A stretch of DNA of 64,000 bases from an uncultured Bacilli bacterium. GTDB lineage: Bacteria; Bacillota_I; Bacilli_A; RF39; UBA660. The DNA is taken from contig CANRDU010000002.1 of assembly GCA_947629445.1 (NCBI GenBank), positions 64,047-128,046 of the forward strand, in the 5' to 3' direction. The stretch's first letter is position 1. Each line of letters begins with the position of its first letter. The position numbers and the translations under genes were made by a program. The notes under the pieces were generated by a model that had not been told where the DNA came from, searched no databases, and was given only the letters and a program-made list of their open reading frames with translations. Positions 25,295 to 32,010 of the stretch are shown here, piece after piece.

Positions 25295-25573
25295 TTAATT
25301 ATTCATAAATCCAGAACATTTTCCACAGTCATTATTAATGATTTGATTTTCTTCTGAACAAGAATATCTCGGTGTATATGTATGATTGTAAATATGTTTG
25401 TTAACTACATGTGTATGAATTGGACAAACATGTGGTACTTCATGTTGAAATACTCTCTCCACACATTTGTTGATGGTTGGTTCTACTACTTCTTGAATTT
25501 GTCTTTGACAGCAACCACCTTGACGTGTTCCAAACATATTGTTATTTCTGTTGCAACAATTTTGATTAAACAT
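25295..25573 (-). CDS. CotD-family spore coat protein-like (92 aa)
   Basis: Start refined to ATG 25573 (MFNQNCCNRNN) after SD AAGGGGGAA. VEPTINKCVERVFQHEVPHVCPIHTHVVNKHIYNHTYTP matches the V.P...C....F...VPH..P.HT..VN.H...H.Y.P pattern of CotD as I recall it. The track extension overlaps ffh. Confidence 0.6.
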   Translation of the reverse strand: MFNQNCCNRNNNMFGTRQGGCCQRQIQEVVEPTINKCVERVFQHEVPHVCPIHTHVVNKHIYNHTYTPRYSCSEENQIINNDCGKCSGFMNN

Positions 25574-25655
25574 ATTGTTTTCCCCCTTATCTAATCTATC
25601 ATATGTACTAAGACAAAAAACGAATAAGCAAATTCCTAGATACAAAAAAAAATAC

Positions 25656-26954
25656 CTAAAAAGGCATTTTTCCATTCTTCATCTGTTTCATCATCACTTT
25701 CATTTGTTCAAACTGTTTAACCAATCGATTAACCTCTTCTACCGTTCTTCCTGAACCATTTGCAATTCTCTGCTTCCGGGTTGCTTTTAAGCAGTCTGGA
25801 TGTCTTCTCTCATAAGGAGTCATCGATAAGATAATTGCTTCGATATGAGCCATATCTTTTGGATCTACCTTAATATTTTTAGCTTCTTTTGGGATACCAG
25901 GAAGCATTTTGATTAAATTTTCTAACGGTCCTAATTTTTTTATTTGCTTTAAGGTACTTAAAAAATCCTCTAAATCAAATTTTCCCTCTTGCATTCTCTT
26001 GGCAGACTTCATCGCTTCATCTTGATCAATTACTTCTTCTGCTTTTTCTATCATGGTCATAATGTCGCCCATACCTAAAATACGAGTAGCCATTCGATCA
26101 GGATAAAATTCATCTAGTCCATCCATTTTTTCACTAATACCAATAAACTTAATTGGAACATTCGTTAAATGGCGAATAGAAAGAGCAGCTCCACCACGAG
26201 TATCACCATCCAATTTGGTTAAAATAGCCCCTGTTAGAGATAATCGATTATTGAATCCCTCAATCACATTGATAGCATCTTGACCGGTCATACTGTCCAC
26301 AACCAACATTACTTCATGAGGGTTAATCTCTGTTTGAATATTATTTAATTCATCCATTAATTCTTCATCGATATGTAAACGCCCCGCTGTATCAATTAGC
26401 ACATAATCATAACGATTTTCTTTAGCATATTGAATTGCATTTTTGGCAATTAAAACAGGATTTCCTTTTCCTTCTTCATATACTTCAATATTGAGTTCTT
26501 TACCAATTTGCTTTAACTGATCAATAGCCGCTGGTCGATAAACATCACAGGCAACCAGAAGCGGATTTTTCTTATATTTCTTACGAAGCATACGAGCAAG
26601 TTTTCCAATTGTTGTTGTTTTACCACTACCTTGAAGTCCAACAAGCATTAAGATTGAAGGATTCCCAGCCGTATAGATATCAGCCTTTTCCCCTCCTAAG
26701 AGTTCAACTAATTCATCTTTTAAAATTTTGACAAACATCTCACCCGGTTTTAAAGATTTGGCAACTTCCTCCCCTAAAGCTTTTTCTTTGACATTATTCA
26801 CAAACTCTTTGACTACTTTATAGTTAACATCTGCTTCTAGTAAAGCAAGACGAATTTCTCTAGTAACATCACTAATATTTTCTTCGGTAATTTTTCCGTA
26901 ACCTTTAATTTTATTTACCGCATTTTGTAATCTTTCTCCTAAGCTTTCAAACAT
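25656..26954 (-). CDS. ffh: signal recognition particle protein Ffh
   Basis: MFESLGERLQ..., GLQGSGKTTTIGKLA, DTAGR, TKLDGD and an M-domain. ATG 26954 follows AGGTGAT; the track start 26963 is a GTG within the SD. Confidence 0.97.
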   Translation of the reverse strand: MFESLGERLQNAVNKIKGYGKITEENISDVTREIRLALLEADVNYKVVKEFVNNVKEKALGEEVAKSLKPGEMFVKILKDELVELLGGEKADIYTAGNPSILMLVGLQGSGKTTTIGKLARMLRKKYKKNPLLVACDVYRPAAIDQLKQIGKELNIEVYEEGKGNPVLIAKNAIQYAKENRYDYVLIDTAGRLHIDEELMDELNNIQTEINPHEVMLVVDSMTGQDAINVIEGFNNRLSLTGAILTKLDGDTRGGAALSIRHLTNVPIKFIGISEKMDGLDEFYPDRMATRILGMGDIMTMIEKAEEVIDQDEAMKSAKRMQEGKFDLEDFLSTLKQIKKLGPLENLIKMLPGIPKEAKNIKVDPKDMAHIEAIILSMTPYERRHPDCLKATRKQRIANGSGRTVEEVNRLVKQFEQMKVMMKQMKNGKMPF

Positions 26955-26972
26955 TTTAATCACCTAGTACTT

Positions 26973-26981
26973 ATTATATCA
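26973..26981 (-). promoter_or_regulatory. extended -10 promoter element for ffh
   Basis: Minus strand reads TGaTATAAT about 20 nt upstream of the ffh SD. The -35 is poor. Confidence 0.4.
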
Positions 26982-27005: not shown

Positions 27006-27530
27006 TTGTTTAAAAAAAGCAAACTAATACGGGGTGATACTATCACATATTTATTAATATTTAGTTTAAAAATCATCGAGAATGCTCTTGCTACTCTCCG
27101 TATTATTGTCATTGCGAATGGTAAAAAATTTATCGGTGCTTTTCTTAATTTTCTCATGTCTTTTTCTTGGATTTTTTCCATGTCTTTAGTCCTCGTCAAT
27201 ATTCAAACAGATCCTATTAAAATTATTGCTTATTCTTTTGGAACCTTCTTTGGTTCTTATATGGGTTCTCTGATTGAAGAACGTTTAGCGCTCGGAAACA
27301 ACATGATTATAGCGATTACCGATAAAGAAAAAAATACAGTAATAGATAAATTACGCGAACAACATTATCCTGTCATCTCACTAGAGGGAAAAGAACTAGA
27401 AGAGGAAAAGGACATCCTCCTGATAACGACCACTAGAAAGAAAAAAAGAAATGTCATCCATCTGATTAAAAGAATTGATAAAAAGTGTTCCATTATCATT
27501 GATAATGCCTACTTAGATACCAAAATATAA
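27006..27530 (+). CDS. UPF0316/DUF2179-family membrane protein
   Basis: 174 aa: LKIIENALATLRIIVIANGKK, three TM segments and a C-terminal DUF2179-like domain. The only canonical in-frame start is TTG 27006, which has no clear SD, so the start is uncertain. Confidence 0.65.
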   Translation: MFKKSKLIRGDTITYLLIFSLKIIENALATLRIIVIANGKKFIGAFLNFLMSFSWIFSMSLVLVNIQTDPIKIIAYSFGTFFGSYMGSLIEERLALGNNMIIAITDKEKNTVIDKLREQHYPVISLEGKELEEEKDILLITTTRKKKRNVIHLIKRIDKKCSIIIDNAYLDTKI

Positions 27531-28162
27531 GCTTTATCTGTAATCACTAACATATCATCTGATATGTTTTTTAATTCTTCTTTCCGATTAACAGTCCATA
27601 TCATTTTCTTTTTAGGAGAAGTAATATCAGGGTAAGCTCCTCTAGAAACAGAAAGGAATGTAAAAGGTCTATACTCTTTATTTTTGTTGATAAAATCACT
27701 TACTAATAAACCAACGGGAAAACTCGTTTTTAACTGATAAATATCATATCGAAAACTACAAACAGAAATAAATAGATGCGTATATTTTTCTAATACTTTA
27801 GAAAGTTCCTTCATCACTTCTTCCATGTTAGAACGTTCTTCCTTTACATCTAATAAGATTATTTTATCACTATCTACTGCCTCTAAAAATTCCTCTAAAG
27901 AATTTAAAAAATGAGGTTTATCGAAAGTTCCTAAATTTAAGGATTGTAATGTTTTTAAAGTCTCATTTCTAATACCATAAAAATCAATACCTAAATATAA
28001 AATAGAACTATTATGACTAATGATAAATTTTTTATCTTTTGTCATACGAATATCTAATTCTACCCCATCGATATAATCTTGCTTTAAACACCAAAGAAGT
28101 GCTTCTTTCGTATTCTCGTAAAAAGAATGTTTATCTTTTCCCCGATGAGCGATAAATTTCAT
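27509..28162 (-). CDS. glycerophosphodiester phosphodiesterase (GDPD/PI-PLC-like TIM barrel) family protein
   Basis: 217 aa with FIAHRG, YENTKEAL and GVELDIRMTKDKKFIISHN (HD is replaced by HN). SD GGTGATGAC. The 3' end overlaps the convergent DUF2179 gene by 22 nt. Confidence 0.7.
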   Translation of the reverse strand: MKFIAHRGKDKHSFYENTKEALLWCLKQDYIDGVELDIRMTKDKKFIISHNSSILYLGIDFYGIRNETLKTLQSLNLGTFDKPHFLNSLEEFLEAVDSDKIILLDVKEERSNMEEVMKELSKVLEKYTHLFISVCSFRYDIYQLKTSFPVGLLVSDFINKNKEYRPFTFLSVSRGAYPDITSPKKKMIWTVNRKEELKNISDDMLVITDKAYILVSK

Positions 28163-28193
28163 GTCATCACCAGTTTAATATATGTTGTTATCA

Positions 28194-28224
28194 TCAAAAA
28201 AAGATATAGAAATCTATATCTTTA
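28194..28224 (-). terminator. hairpin plus T-run directly after the HerA-like gene
   Basis: Transcript TAAAGATATAG-attt-CTATATCTTT followed by TTTTTGATG. The stem includes the stop codon. Confidence 0.6.
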
Positions 28225-29979
28225 ATGAGTCCATCTACCAACAACATCAGCATTACTACTATATGGTTCTGGATTTGGAAGTGGCATTCTAACAATCATT
28301 GGTATTTTAAGAGCACGTCCAAATGCTACACAAGTACCAGGCTGTAAACTCTTTTGTTTTTCCATAATTTCCGAACTCATATTTGGTAACATCTTTTTTA
28401 AGTATTCCAAATCCCTTGGATGGGACATCTTAAAAATTAAGAAGTTTGTACACTGTGAAATAACGGTTTCGGATAATTCTACTGGTCTTTGAGAAATCAA
28501 AAGGAGCAACAAACCAAATTTACGTCCTTCCTTCGCAATTCTTTCGAAAATGTTATATCCAAGTAGGAAGTTATCATTATCATTTTGTACATAACGGTGA
28601 GATTCCTCTAGTACAATATGGAATGGAATAGATGCTCTTTCATTTAAACGTTTGGTAAAATCAAATAAAAGTTTAGAATAAATTTTTACAATCGTTTTAG
28701 CAATTCTATCGTCTGCATCCTCCAAGTTAAAGTTAACTAACTGGGCTTTTTTACCATTTTTAGTAACAAGAGAAGCTACATAATTTTCCATATTAATATA
28801 TTGTGGGTAACTAAAGAACTCCTTCGCTTCTCCAATGGCAAGAGAGTGAAGTCTAACCTTTAAAGTAATCGCTTCATCGTAAAGTCTTTCATTACGAAGC
28901 AATCCTTCAGAAATTAAAGTAAATTGAAGGGCCTTCTCCATATCTTCTAATGTGAAGAAATGATCAGCGGTTGGTTCGTATTTTTCTAGATTATCGTCAA
29001 TAAAAGAAGTAATATATTGAGTAATTAAAATACTTTCAGTAAACTGTCCTGACGTATCAATTAAAAAGCACTCTCTAAATTTACGAACATACCCAAGTCC
29101 TTGTACTGGTGCCTCTAAATTAAATTGCTCGGTCGAACAACTTGCTAAAATAGAAAATATATCATTTCGCTTACTAGCAGAAGTTTGATTCGTATACATG
29201 ATATCCATAATAGCTTTGGCAATTAAGTGGTTCTTATAACGAGTACTGACATCCCCCTCTGTTGCGAAAACACGAACTAATTTAATCATTCTTTCAATGA
29301 TTGGTAACTGGGAGTGTCTTTCTGCATTGAGCAAAAGTGCGAAATCATCAATGCTTAAAAGCCATAGAGGAATTCTAAGCAATTCTCCGCCCTCACGCAA
29401 CTGTGCTTTATTCGTCGTATAGAATTTAAAATTGTAGTTAGGATTAATTTGGTTAATGTTTTGAAAAGCATTATGATACTCACCATAAGCATCAAAAATC
29501 ATGAAATTAGACTTAAAAGGAACAAAGTCTGGGTTATAGAATAGACTTTGAATAAATCTAGCAACTCCGTAAGATTTACCACTACCAGTATTACCAAAGA
29601 TAGCCATATGGTTACTACATAATTCATTAATCTCTACCATGACAGGAGTATTCTCGTAAAGGGGACTCATACCTAATAATAGAGATCCTTCTTTTTGCTC
29701 TCCCATAATGATTTTAAGTTCTTCTGGCGTAATGATTCTAGTAGTCGCCGTTAAATTTGGTTTTCTTAAAACACCACCAATAAATTGATTATCGGCTAGT
29801 TCTCCCAAAAAACGGATTTTGATAATTTCATCAGAAACATCTTCTACTTCCCCTAAAATTTTTTTATCCTCGTCCTCAAACACCACATGCATATTCATTA
29901 AATTCATAATGACAGGGGCATCCTTTGGAACAGATACATGCGCAACGTTATCACTAATATACACTATTCTTCCGAACAT
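28222..29979 (-). CDS. HerA/FtsK-superfamily ATPase (DUF87-like, HAS-barrel N-terminus)
   Basis: Walker A IFGNTGSGKSYG, Walker B-like FHIVLEESHRY, ISQRPVELSETVISQCTNFLIFKM, and an N-terminal beta-barrel-like segment FGRIVYISDNVAHVSV...EVEDVSDEIIKIRFLGE. ATG 29979 is preferred (GTG 29988 is also possible). It lies 5-14 nt after ylxM. Confidence 0.75.
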   Translation of the reverse strand: MFGRIVYISDNVAHVSVPKDAPVIMNLMNMHVVFEDEDKKILGEVEDVSDEIIKIRFLGELADNQFIGGVLRKPNLTATTRIITPEELKIIMGEQKEGSLLLGMSPLYENTPVMVEINELCSNHMAIFGNTGSGKSYGVARFIQSLFYNPDFVPFKSNFMIFDAYGEYHNAFQNINQINPNYNFKFYTTNKAQLREGGELLRIPLWLLSIDDFALLLNAERHSQLPIIERMIKLVRVFATEGDVSTRYKNHLIAKAIMDIMYTNQTSASKRNDIFSILASCSTEQFNLEAPVQGLGYVRKFRECFLIDTSGQFTESILITQYITSFIDDNLEKYEPTADHFFTLEDMEKALQFTLISEGLLRNERLYDEAITLKVRLHSLAIGEAKEFFSYPQYINMENYVASLVTKNGKKAQLVNFNLEDADDRIAKTIVKIYSKLLFDFTKRLNERASIPFHIVLEESHRYVQNDNDNFLLGYNIFERIAKEGRKFGLLLLLISQRPVELSETVISQCTNFLIFKMSHPRDLEYLKKMLPNMSSEIMEKQKSLQPGTCVAFGRALKIPMIVRMPLPNPEPYSSNADVVGRWTH

Positions 29980-29993
29980 AATCCTCACCCTTC

Positions 29994-30278
29994 TTATAAT
30001 ATTTCCAAAATTTGTTGTAATAAATCCTCATCTTTTATACATTCTTTTATTTTTTGTGTCTTGACATAAAAACCTAATTTTTGTTCATAATATTTTAATT
30101 TTTCTGATATCGTAGTCAGTGCTTTATGCACAGCATTCCTACTAATACCATGTTGCTCCGCTATTTCCTGTAGTGTTAAATTATCAAAATAATAAGCTTC
30201 AAAAAACTCTCTCTGTTTATCGGTTAATAATTCCCCATAATAGTCATAAAGACCATTTAAGTACACCAATTCTTCCAT
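29994..30278 (-). CDS. ylxM: YlxM (UPF0122) putative HTH protein of the SRP operon
   Basis: 94 aa. LYDYYGELLTDKQREFFEAYYFDNLTLQEIAEQHGISRNAVHKAL aligns with Bacillus YlxM as I recall it. Confidence 0.85.
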   Translation of the reverse strand: MEELVYLNGLYDYYGELLTDKQREFFEAYYFDNLTLQEIAEQHGISRNAVHKALTTISEKLKYYEQKLGFYVKTQKIKECIKDEDLLQQILEIL

Positions 30279-30547
30279 TATAATAACTCCAAAATCATCG
30301 ATACGAAAGTAACAATAGCAAATACAACATAAATTCCTGCTACTATCTTCCTATTCGCTAACTTATAATTATTCCAAGCCATAATTAGTAAAGCAAAACT
30401 TAACATTCCATATAATAATGGCATCCACATATTGGAAAATAAGGACATAACCCCAGAAATTAGGACCGCTACAACCGATACAATTTGTAAAATAACGGTA
30501 AACGGTTGTTTTTTTCCTTTTAATTCAATGATTTTAACAGAATTCAT
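30278..30547 (-). CDS. hypothetical small membrane protein (89 aa, 3 TM)
   Basis: ATG 30547 (MNSVKIIELKGKK) after SD GAGGTG, which overlaps the ftsY stop. Its TAA overlaps the ylxM ATG (TAATG). No family recognised. Confidence 0.6.
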   Translation of the reverse strand: MNSVKIIELKGKKQPFTVILQIVSVVAVLISGVMSLFSNMWMPLLYGMLSFALLIMAWNNYKLANRKIVAGIYVVFAIVTFVSMILELL

Positions 30548-30555
30548 CAGACACC

Positions 30556-31530
30556 TCACATATCTTTGAAGAGACCATAGATATACTTTTCAATATCAAA
30601 TGTACGTAAATCTTTTGCTTGTTCTCCCATCCCGACAAACTTAACAGGAATCCCCAAAGCTTCTTTGATAGCTAGGACAATTCCACCCTTGGCGGTTCCA
30701 TCTAACTTTGTTAAAACAATTCCTGTAATATTCGTAATCTTTTGAAATTCTTTCGCTTGACTAATTCCATTTTGACCAGTAGTTGCATCCACTACTAACA
30801 AGGTCTCATGAGGAGCTTCTGGAATAATGCGTCCAATTACTTTATTCATCTTCTCTAATTCACTCATTAAATTGGCCTTATTTTGAAGACGACCAGCTGT
30901 ATCAATCAACACGACATCATAATCTTCTTCCTTTGCCTTTGTAACACCATCGAAAATAACACTAGCAGGATCTGCTCCCTCTTTATAGACAACAGGAGAA
31001 TTCGTCCTTTCGCCCCATTCTACAATTTGCTCAACGGCTCCAGCACGAAAGGTATCACCAGCCACTAAAAGAACCGTTTTGCCTTCTTCTTTTAATCGAT
31101 AAGCAATCTTACCGATGGTTGTTGTTTTACCAACACCATTAACACCGACGAATAAAACAACGGTTGGTCCACTTTCTGCATATTGAATTTTATTTACCAT
31201 AATACTATTATCAACATAAATAATAAACATTTCATCGACAATAATCTCTCGTAAATCTTCACTATCTTCAATATTCTCTTTTTTTACTCTCTTTTTCAAT
31301 CGATCAATGAAGTCCATGACAGTAGAAACCCCAATATCAGCCATGATGAGAATCTCTTCCAACTCTTCAAAATATTCTGGACTTACTTTTTTATATTTTA
31401 AATTCAAAAGACTAATCTTAGAAACAAATTCTTTCCTTGTTTTCTCTAGTCCTTTATCGTATACTTCTACTTCCTCTTGTTCTTTTTTATTACTACTAAA
31501 AAGACTTTTAAATTTATCAAATAACCCCAT
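30556..31530 (-). CDS. ftsY: signal recognition particle receptor FtsY
   Basis: 324 aa with GVNGVGKTTTIGKIA, DTAGRLQNK and TKLDGTAKGG. Confidence 0.96.
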   Translation of the reverse strand: MGLFDKFKSLFSSNKKEQEEVEVYDKGLEKTRKEFVSKISLLNLKYKKVSPEYFEELEEILIMADIGVSTVMDFIDRLKKRVKKENIEDSEDLREIIVDEMFIIYVDNSIMVNKIQYAESGPTVVLFVGVNGVGKTTTIGKIAYRLKEEGKTVLLVAGDTFRAGAVEQIVEWGERTNSPVVYKEGADPASVIFDGVTKAKEEDYDVVLIDTAGRLQNKANLMSELEKMNKVIGRIIPEAPHETLLVVDATTGQNGISQAKEFQKITNITGIVLTKLDGTAKGGIVLAIKEALGIPVKFVGMGEQAKDLRTFDIEKYIYGLFKDM

Positions 31531-31623
31531 GTAAAAACCTCCTAGTTACGTCTATTACCATTGTATCATAAAAGTCTAAGAATTGGAATTTTTTCCATCA
31601 AAAAAAGAGAAATCCATTCGCTT

Positions 31624-32010
31624 TTAAGCAACTTTCTTTCTCGTTTTCCCTTTCGCCTTTACTACCTCTTTAATTGGTTCTAACTCAATAATCTGATGAC
31701 TAGGAATATGATAGGAAAAATCTAGTTCTAAATGGCGATTTGTAAAGTCATAAAAGGTTTCATATTCCTTCATTTTACAGGCAATAACACTATCTTCTTT
31801 TTCAACAGAAAAGGCATAAAAACGGCTACCTAAAAAGAAATAATAATCGTCTAACTCTTTTCCACCTAATAATCTCTTGGCAATTTCTCGGTTTTTTTTA
31901 GCATATTCACTTTCTAAAACCCAAGCAGGATTATCTCCTATGCAAGAGCGAAAAGCATAAATTAACCGCATCGTATCATCATGTTCAAATAATTCTAATT
32001 TCTTTAACAT
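31624..32010 (-). CDS. hypothetical protein (128 aa)
   Basis: Good SD (taggaggcgcc) and ATG, with a basic C-terminal tail. No family recognised. Confidence 0.55.
   Translation of the reverse strand: MLKKLELFEHDDTMRLIYAFRSCIGDNPAWVLESEYAKKNREIAKRLLGGKELDDYYFFLGSRFYAFSVEKEDSVIACKMKEYETFYDFTNRHLELDFSYHIPSHQIIELEPIKEVVKAKGKTRKKVA

Follow-up and report, generated by a model that had tools for sequence, protein, structure and literature searches.

What a HerA-type ring ATPase is doing inside the operon for the signal recognition particle (SRP) is the question raised by a 64,000-nucleotide stretch of DNA from an uncultured Bacilli bacterium (assembly GCA_947629445.1, contig CANRDU010000002.1, positions 64,047 to 128,046), which we call the window in its entirety and whose numbering is used throughout. 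According to the map of open reading frames (ORFs) and to domain scans, its minus strand carries, in this order, ftsY, a small gene for a protein with three transmembrane segments, ylxM, a gene for a HerA/DUF87 ATPase (hereafter herA), a gene for a GDPD-family phosphodiesterase and ffh, with a convergent UPF0316 gene on the plus strand ahead of ffh. To our knowledge, bacterial HerA is known in two settings, with NurA in end resection, and in anti-phage defence, where it assembles and activates SIR2 or DUF4297 effectors. Our literature search returned no paper that ties HerA to ylxM or the SRP or that describes a housekeeping HerA in Bacilli. A preliminary description of the window had placed all these genes as the ORF map and domain scans now place them, and had proposed that HerA either forms a pair with the phosphodiesterase or was recruited to SRP biology. 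Our analysis leads us to conclude with high confidence that herA is a core, vertically inherited gene without a partner in its neighbourhood, that it ends the ftsY operon and that it is unrelated to the phosphodiesterase gene. We lean towards the interpretation that its product is a domesticated, constitutively expressed and partnerless ring motor, which serves a housekeeping role not yet described and probably works on DNA.

The herA gene (28222..29988, minus strand) encodes 585 aa from the ATG at 29979 or 588 aa from the GTG at 29988. It matches Pfam DUF87 (PF01935; 5e-23, 82.8 bits against a gathering cut-off of 23.2) and, over nearly its full length, the PADLOC HerA model PDLC04102 (1.5e-107). 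The NCBIfam equivalogs for anti-phage HerA are far from reached (NF042944, 165.5 bits against 850; NF042943, 157.6 against 800), and the protein is also well under the NCBIfam cut-offs for archaeal HerA equivalogs. Across 65-107 homologues the Walker A (GNTGSGKS), Walker B (LEESH) and ISQRP motifs are invariant or nearly so, conservation is complete or at least 90% at G132, G135, G137, K138, E461, E462, R489, K490, Q500 and R501, and the EGRK residues are invariant or nearly so in 107 homologues. An AlphaFold2 model of the monomer, built with 65 homologues (predicted local distance difference test 89.2, predicted template modelling score 0.86), begins with a beta-barrel, whose strands span residues 8-119, and continues with an alpha/beta core of RecA-like type that bears a helical insert; no transmembrane segment is present. 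Foldseek searches with this model ranked DUF4297-HerA and SIR2-HerA structures first (E about 1e-29, TM-score up to 0.77) and HerA-NurA later, with alignments to solved HerAs running full length. The best PDB sequence matches are the HerA chains of DUF4297-HerA (9c1m, 4.9e-41), SIR2-HerA and Sulfolobus HerA, and they are confined to residues 54-220 and about 400-587 and leave out the conserved insert. This helical insert (residues 213-410) is family-specific and, within the clade of HerA genes found in SRP context, has a mean identity of 68% against 58% for the barrel; it could serve to activate the protein itself or to dock a partner whose gene is not linked. Judged from the model and the profile matches, the gene at 29979..28222 is predicted to encode a bona fide HerA-type ring ATPase, in which a HAS beta-barrel precedes the RecA-like core and the Walker A, Walker B and arginine motifs are intact. 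The HAS-barrel-like N-terminus and the three sequence motifs had been recognized in the preliminary description, which had also suggested profile searches; these matched DUF87 and PADLOC HerA for the ATPase and PF03009 for the phosphodiesterase.

The position of this gene is best understood by reference to the canonical Bacillota order ftsY-ylxM-ffh. In the window the three genes are likewise co-oriented and in the same order; the locus differs in that the small membrane-protein gene and herA are inserted, that a terminator and a new promoter part ffh from ylxM, and that in the source genus the GDPD and UPF0316 genes are added. In nine genomes of the same class but outside the source family (including G025, of the same order, and G030), ftsY, ylxM and ffh are contiguous, with gaps of a few to about 300 nt that contain no gene, neither herA nor the small membrane-protein gene being found in the operon. 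G025 and G030 do possess a HerA homologue, but it is located elsewhere. herA and the small gene are therefore insertions. herA occupies exactly the former ylxM-ffh junction, an insertion that, on these gene orders, is both real and old, and one herA copy would have entered this junction in the ancestor of the source family-level lineage. The preliminary description was thus right that HerA is wedged into the SRP operon, as the comparison with relatives retaining an intact ylxM-ffh junction makes clear, and wrong that it stands in place of ffh, ahead of which it was inserted.

The junctions of the resulting gene block are tight, and we read them as they had been described initially. ftsY (30556..31530, minus strand) encodes the 324-aa SRP receptor (SRP54 GTPase domain, 1.4e-76, with SRP54_N), which is 84-94% identical within the source genus, and its stop codon is overlain by TGAGGTG, 8 nt 5′ of the ATG of the small gene. 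The latter (30278..30559, minus strand; 89 aa from the ATG at 30547 or 93 aa from the GTG at 30559) meets ylxM in a TAATG overlap. ylxM (29994..30278, minus strand) encodes a 94-aa UPF0122 helix-turn-helix SRP accessory protein (PF04297, 3.2e-22; NCBIfam YlxM, 87.4 bits against a cut-off of 80) and is separated from herA by 5 or 14 nt depending on the start chosen, with GGGTGAGG inside this spacing, ahead of the herA ATG. The small membrane protein, which has no match in Pfam, NCBIfam or PADLOC, is found in 30 of 35 SRP-context loci with two or three hydrophobic segments. The five loci without it are partly nested among relatives that have it, so that the gene has been lost repeatedly while herA stayed; as an obligate partner of HerA it is ruled out by these losses.

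The flanking signals delimit the predicted transcription units. A predicted extended −10 element of the ftsY promoter (TGATACAAT, 31560..31568, minus strand) lies 29 nt 5′ of the ftsY ATG, after the T-run of the upstream gene, and ftsY, the small membrane-protein gene, ylxM and herA are predicted to be co-transcribed from it. Directly 3′ of herA, a predicted intrinsic terminator (28196..28221, minus strand) consists of an 8-bp stem (AGATATAG/CTATATCT), a loop ATTT and a T-run. This hairpin and T-run, already noticed in the preliminary description, occurs in 12 of 12 species of the source genus, in which the stems differ in sequence with their pairing preserved. That description had seen no recognizable −10 in the 59-bp spacer between herA and the co-oriented GDPD gene of the source genus. 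We found there, between the terminator and a GGTGAT Shine-Dalgarno sequence preceding the GDPD gene, a predicted −10-like box TATATT (28177..28182, minus strand), the probable GDPD promoter; a CATATACT box is conserved at this place in most of the 12 species, reading CATATATT in the window. Where herA directly precedes ffh, six of the seven distinct spacers compared likewise consist of a hairpin and T-run followed by a TATAAT-type box. herA is thus predicted to end one transcript and the GDPD gene to begin another, and herA would close a four-gene unit running from the ftsY promoter through ftsY, the small membrane-protein gene and ylxM to the terminator. ffh would be transcribed from its own promoter, for which the extended −10 element reported initially can be read from the sequence (TGATATAAT, 26973..26981, minus strand).

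The distribution of herA is that of a core gene. Each of the 20 sampled genomes of the source genus has it, with 82-95% identity, and usually carries another copy that is 47-49% identical. Across the source order, an abundant group of uncultured gut Bacilli with small genomes (0.6-1.8 Mb), it was detected in 284 of 301 genomes (about 94%) and in 120 of 127 genera at E<=1e-130, mostly as one or two copies, with tandem copies in a few genomes. A scan of species-representative genomes yielded 589 relatives, and the 80 best of those listed all belong to uncultured gut Bacilli, “Tenericutes” or misbinned metagenome-assembled genomes (for example Candidatus Onthousia, Coprobacillus sp. CAG:605 and Firmicutes bacterium CAG:321). 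Two deep clades emerge when 107 members of the family are placed in a maximum-likelihood tree, a tree that, like the rooted one discussed below, is the product of a quick search. HerA-1 members lie in SRP, tcdA/rarA/xerD and rnpA/dnaA contexts, and HerA-2 members in yqeG-yqeH, sepF/DivIVA-like and ltaS/recG contexts, while the SRP-context genes form a single clade. Genomic context follows this tree with 14 changes against 59.9 when labels are shuffled, which points to vertical descent with rare relocations rather than to a mobile defence gene. Within the source genus herA is also as constrained as ftsY (non-synonymous divergence, dN, of 0.067 and 0.073, respectively, with 0.036 for ffh), although synonymous divergence (dS) is saturated at about 1.3-1.5 and dN/dS ratios are consequently approximate.

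Several features of the paralogues deserve to be recorded. The second HerA of the source genome (G000:C14:31799-33550, corresponding to L019 7000-8769; 47% identity) is flanked on one side by an LtaS-like sulfatase gene and a gene for a 224-aa membrane-anchored protein and on the other by a gene for a 171-aa protein with multiple transmembrane segments and recG; the order LtaS-like/HerA-2/recG is repeated in L020, L021 and L074. One HerA-1 subclade (L016 of G022, L050, L051 and L056) is located in the origin region, with rnpA-yidC-jag on one side and dnaA-dnaN on the other, and has the same orientation as dnaA. In several genera the HerA proteins of the SRP clade bear a long C-terminal low-complexity tail rich in Pro, Gln and Ala, for a total of 724-940 aa (for example L015 2145-4319 of G023, P0121 and P0122), and many entries of the order survey are open frames of 650-900 aa; HerA of the source genus has no such tail. 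Some genera carry tandem head-to-tail HerA-1 duplicates (G180:C7:10152-13674 and G163:C6:9638-13161) that are 53-57% identical to the query, and these hint at hetero-oligomers or at ongoing duplication.

The phosphodiesterase gene has a different history. Located at 27509..28162 (minus strand), it encodes 217 aa with a match to PF03009 (5.6e-10, 40.2 bits against a cut-off of 23.6). Alignment to the Thermotoga maritima GDPD structure 1o1z shows that H6, E16, E35, D37 and H50, and with them both catalytic histidines and the acidic metal ligands, are kept, as are the HRG, ENT and ELD motifs, and that SHN replaces SHD, which bears out the initial reading of the second catalytic HD as HN. The protein looks like an ordinary cytoplasmic enzyme, its activity being predicted, and it has no match among PADLOC models. 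Its gene converges with that of the 174-aa UPF0316 membrane protein (27006..27530, plus strand; DUF5698 and DUF2179; PF18955, 3.7e-11; PF10035, 1.9e-4; NCBIfam PRK04164 models), the 3′ ends overlapping by 22 bp (27509..27530). All 12 fully compared species of the source genus have the order ftsY, small membrane-protein gene, ylxM, herA, GDPD, convergent UPF0316 and ffh, and among the genera of the family compared it is only in this one that GDPD and UPF0316 adjoin herA. Elsewhere in the family, ffh comes straight after herA in G020; in G021 one short unrelated ORF separates the two, and the GDPD orthologues of these genomes (37% identity) reside on contigs other than that of herA (C6 and C53, respectively). 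No GDPD was found in G018, G022, G025 or G030, all of which keep HerA, and in G006 it lies 6 kb away from HerA. Among 108 loci of the HerA family, a GDPD gene occurs within five genes only in the source genus and in L071 and L085, about 90 loci being without one at that distance. In L071 and L085 the same convergent GDPD/UPF0316 pair is found upstream of yqeG-yqeH, four genes upstream of a HerA paralogue, and its recurrence apart from the source genus indicates that GDPD and UPF0316 are a unit of their own. Non-synonymous divergence within the source genus is 0.383 for the GDPD gene, 0.386 for the small membrane-protein gene, 0.24 for ylxM and 0.27 for UPF0316, so that the amino acid sequence of the phosphodiesterase changes at about six times the rate of HerA (dN 0.38 versus 0.07). 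By these comparisons the phosphodiesterase beside HerA is to all appearances an unrelated later arrival, GDPD and UPF0316 having presumably landed as a separate two-gene unit between herA and ffh in the source genus only.

Profile searches for the known partners of HerA gave a consistent picture. NurA (PF09376) was found in none of 41 relatives, with positive controls, and a HerA-NurA machine is ruled out by this absence. SIR2_2 (PF13289) was found neither in the source genome (G000) nor in any of the 20 genomes of the source genus, two of the 41 relatives having one, and Cap4/DUF4297 (PF14130) was detected in a single relative of the 41, outside the source family. The preliminary description had seen no NurA, Sir2 or DUF4297 gene next to herA, and its statement extends to the source genus as a whole; the idea that a SIR2 or DUF4297 partner is hidden at some other locus is likewise rejected for this genus. 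Clustering of 1381 neighbouring ORFs from the 108 HerA loci revealed no recurrent effector. The clustered neighbours are all housekeeping genes (yqeG/yqeH, sepF, DivIVA-like, tcdA-like, gpsA, rarA, xerD, dnaA, rnpA, ltaS and recG), none is common to different HerA clades, and a conserved neighbour as the partner of HerA is ruled out by this clustering. Replacement of known machines by HerA found no favour either. A canonical 766-aa FtsK is encoded at G000:C15 (215.9 bits) and FtsK is present in 40 of 41 relatives, which excludes HerA as an FtsK substitute. Compensation for missing AddAB or RuvAB was rejected because no complementary pattern emerged and an AddA-like protein of 1044 aa and RuvB are present.

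Among characterized systems, the closest in structure are those of anti-phage defence. SIR2-HerA (Nezha; PDB 8wld, 8yhx, 8j4u and 8sub; Foldseek E about 1e-28, TM-score up to 0.77) shares with the window protein a fold in three parts, namely a beta-barrel, a RecA-like core bearing a helical insert, and a tail with PNPxP...W at the C-terminus. Unlike in Nezha, the neighbours of herA are ylxM and GDPD, with no SIR2 gene adjacent or elsewhere in the source genus, and, unlike the patchy, island-borne Nezha genes, herA is fixed and syntenic across the order. DUF4297-HerA (PDB 9c1m, 9c1n, 8ziq and 8xau) provides the best matches in both PDB sequence and Foldseek searches, although identity in the structural alignments is about 20-22% and the source genus has no DUF4297/Cap4-type nuclease. 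The HerA-NurA end-resection complex of archaea and some bacteria (PDB 4d2i and 9x1m), exemplified by Deinococcus NurA-HerA (PMC9960219), has the same HerA fold and, through its housekeeping role, is the closest functional analogy. It differs in that NurA is absent here, that sequence similarity is lower than to defence HerAs and that an AddA-like enzyme is present for end processing. FtsK/SpoIIIE belongs to the same ASCE P-loop superfamily and PF01580 (FtsK_SpoIIIE) matches the ATPase weakly (30.9 bits, residues 100-156 around Walker A only), but unlike these proteins the window HerA lacks a membrane anchor and a gamma domain and has a HAS barrel.

The closest full-length relatives outside the lineage are P0133 (38% identity) and P0136 (34%). 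In both cases the gene lies directly 3′ of a SIR2_2 gene, within a defence island that also contains restriction and PLD genes. More divergent partnerless forms exist as well; P0132, for example, is flanked by a ParA-like gene on one side and HIT/CotE genes on the other. When the root is placed on distant HerAs, a second tree unites all partnerless members in one clade with support of 100, and the SIR2-linked HerAs branch just outside it; the two are separated by a long stem of 1.1 changes per column. G021 has a genuine SIR2_2 and HerA pair (C6:48147-50589, L133 region) besides two core HerA copies; this SIR2-linked HerA is sporadic and only 26% identical to the core protein. These relationships are compatible with a core HerA that probably arose through domestication of a SIR2-HerA-type motor. 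That a HerA ring motor shed its SIR2-type effector to become a core ATPase of the cell cycle or chromosome maintenance, or conversely was the housekeeping source of SIR2-HerA motors, is a possibility that we hold with somewhat less than even confidence.

Other explanations of the locus must be weighed against this background. The pair envisaged in the preliminary description would act in defence or lipid remodelling as a system of two genes, with the phosphodiesterase as an effector under the control of the HerA motor. It draws on the co-orientation of the two genes 59 bp apart in the source genus, on HerA relatives that do work with neighbouring effectors, and on L071 and L085, where a GDPD-UPF0316 pair precedes a HerA paralogue by four genes. 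The neighbourhood survey told against it: adjacency is restricted to one genus, GDPD lies on other contigs in G020 and G021, where ffh follows herA, GDPD is missing from G018, G022, G025 and G030, and it is out of reach in about 90 of the 108 loci. Together with the six-fold higher dN of the GDPD gene, the structurally conserved terminator and conserved −10-like box that separate it from herA, and its lack of a PADLOC match, the comparative data already contradict the pair, which we consider extremely improbable. A second possibility is that HerA is still immune, a fixed and constitutive anti-phage HerA with an effector that is unlinked, unrecognized or provided in trans. Defence HerAs are indeed its best profile and structure matches, its nearest outside relatives are SIR2-linked, defence HerAs require a partner for activity, and the well-conserved helical insert and beta-barrel could mark a docking surface. 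However, defence genes are patchy, whereas herA occurs in nearly all genomes of the order, keeps its synteny and is strongly constrained by purifying selection. Moreover, two ancient paralogues lie inside housekeeping operons, the score against NCBIfam anti-phage HerA is 165 for a cut-off of 850 bits, no SIR2, DUF4297 or NurA gene exists in the source genus, and the only true SIR2-HerA pair among the 41 relatives (G021:C6) is the sporadic, 26% identical one. A persisting immune function therefore strikes us as unlikely. Recruitment to SRP-dependent membrane protein biogenesis together with FtsY, YlxM and/or the small membrane protein, for instance as an unfoldase or translocase at the membrane, is compatible with the order ftsY-(small membrane-protein gene)-ylxM-herA, kept with gaps of 5-20 nt in 35 of 35 loci of one clade across many genera, and with the predicted co-transcription of herA with ftsY and ylxM. 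The FtsK-HerA superfamily includes protein-secretion ATPases, and another HerA-1 subclade is found at the rnpA-yidC-jag/dnaA locus. Against this stand the sister subclade (tcdA/rarA/xerD) and the entire HerA-2 clade, which reside in loci unrelated to the SRP, the terminator and own promoter that set ffh apart, the lack of a transmembrane segment in HerA, and solved relatives that all handle DNA. The initial suggestion that HerA was recruited together with the 89-aa protein fares poorly in particular: the location in the SRP operon is real, but the small gene was lost in 5 of 35 loci with herA retained, and the sister clades and the paralogue are found in housekeeping loci that have no connection with the SRP. 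We judge such a recruitment quite unlikely.

The interpretation that we favour, with modest confidence, is that of a partnerless core motor. HerA would be a hexamer made constitutively together with FtsY and YlxM, and would use ATP to work as a translocase or helicase, with neither NurA nor a SIR2 or DUF4297 effector. Its most likely substrate would be DNA, in chromosome maintenance (replication-fork handling, recombination or segregation). All characterized HerA relatives act on DNA, and the neighbours of the family, which include dnaA, recG, rarA/xerD, sepF/divIVA-like and parA-like genes but never the same one, give a weak hint in this direction. Several points weigh against this interpretation. 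When the HerA of the solved Paenibacillus SIR2-HerA system is without its partner, its ATPase activity is low and helicase activity is absent; the docking site for SIR2 in that system is on the beta-barrels (PMC11472057). Since defence HerAs are weak without a partner, a truly partner-free motor would be unusual, and a partner that is neither linked nor recognizable may exist. FtsK, the AddA-like helicase-nuclease, RuvB and RecG are all encoded, so that HerA fills no obvious gap, and its stable association with ftsY and ylxM in many genera may mean that it is functionally connected with protein targeting. The saturation of dS makes the estimate of constraint less exact, and the direction of the transition, from defence to core or the reverse, hangs on the rooting of one quick tree. 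A specific role in DNA maintenance, which we derive from the known substrates of HerA relatives and from loose neighbourhood themes, is accordingly proposed only tentatively, and we would sooner doubt than assert it.

The remaining features of the window border the operon on both sides. ffh (SRP54; 25656..26963, minus strand; SRP54, SRP_SPB and SRP54_N) probably starts at the ATG at 26954, with 26963 as the alternative. It is followed by a gene for a Cys/His/Asn-rich protein of about 100-126 aa (25295..25675, minus strand), which is likewise found 3′ of ffh in other genera of the family (L013 11331-11681 and L014 5192-5491; neighbour cluster 20) and occupies the place that rpsP has in Bacillus. 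On the other side, 5′ of ftsY, a 128-aa ORF (31624..32010, minus strand) without family match has a weak homologue in G018 and a strong promoter region (TTGACT-17-TACGAT / TATAAT).

Taken as a whole, the locus illustrates how an insertion, with a terminator and a new promoter behind it, can break up the universally conserved ftsY-ylxM-ffh operon. Automated defence finders will label these genes as HerA-type defence components, which in the source lineage is probably wrong. The HerA clade described here suggests that the motor also has a housekeeping function which has so far gone undescribed, and that immune and core machinery are linked in evolution. If our interpretation is correct, this would be the first bacterial HerA to work in housekeeping independently of a partner, an immune motor turned core gene, or the converse.

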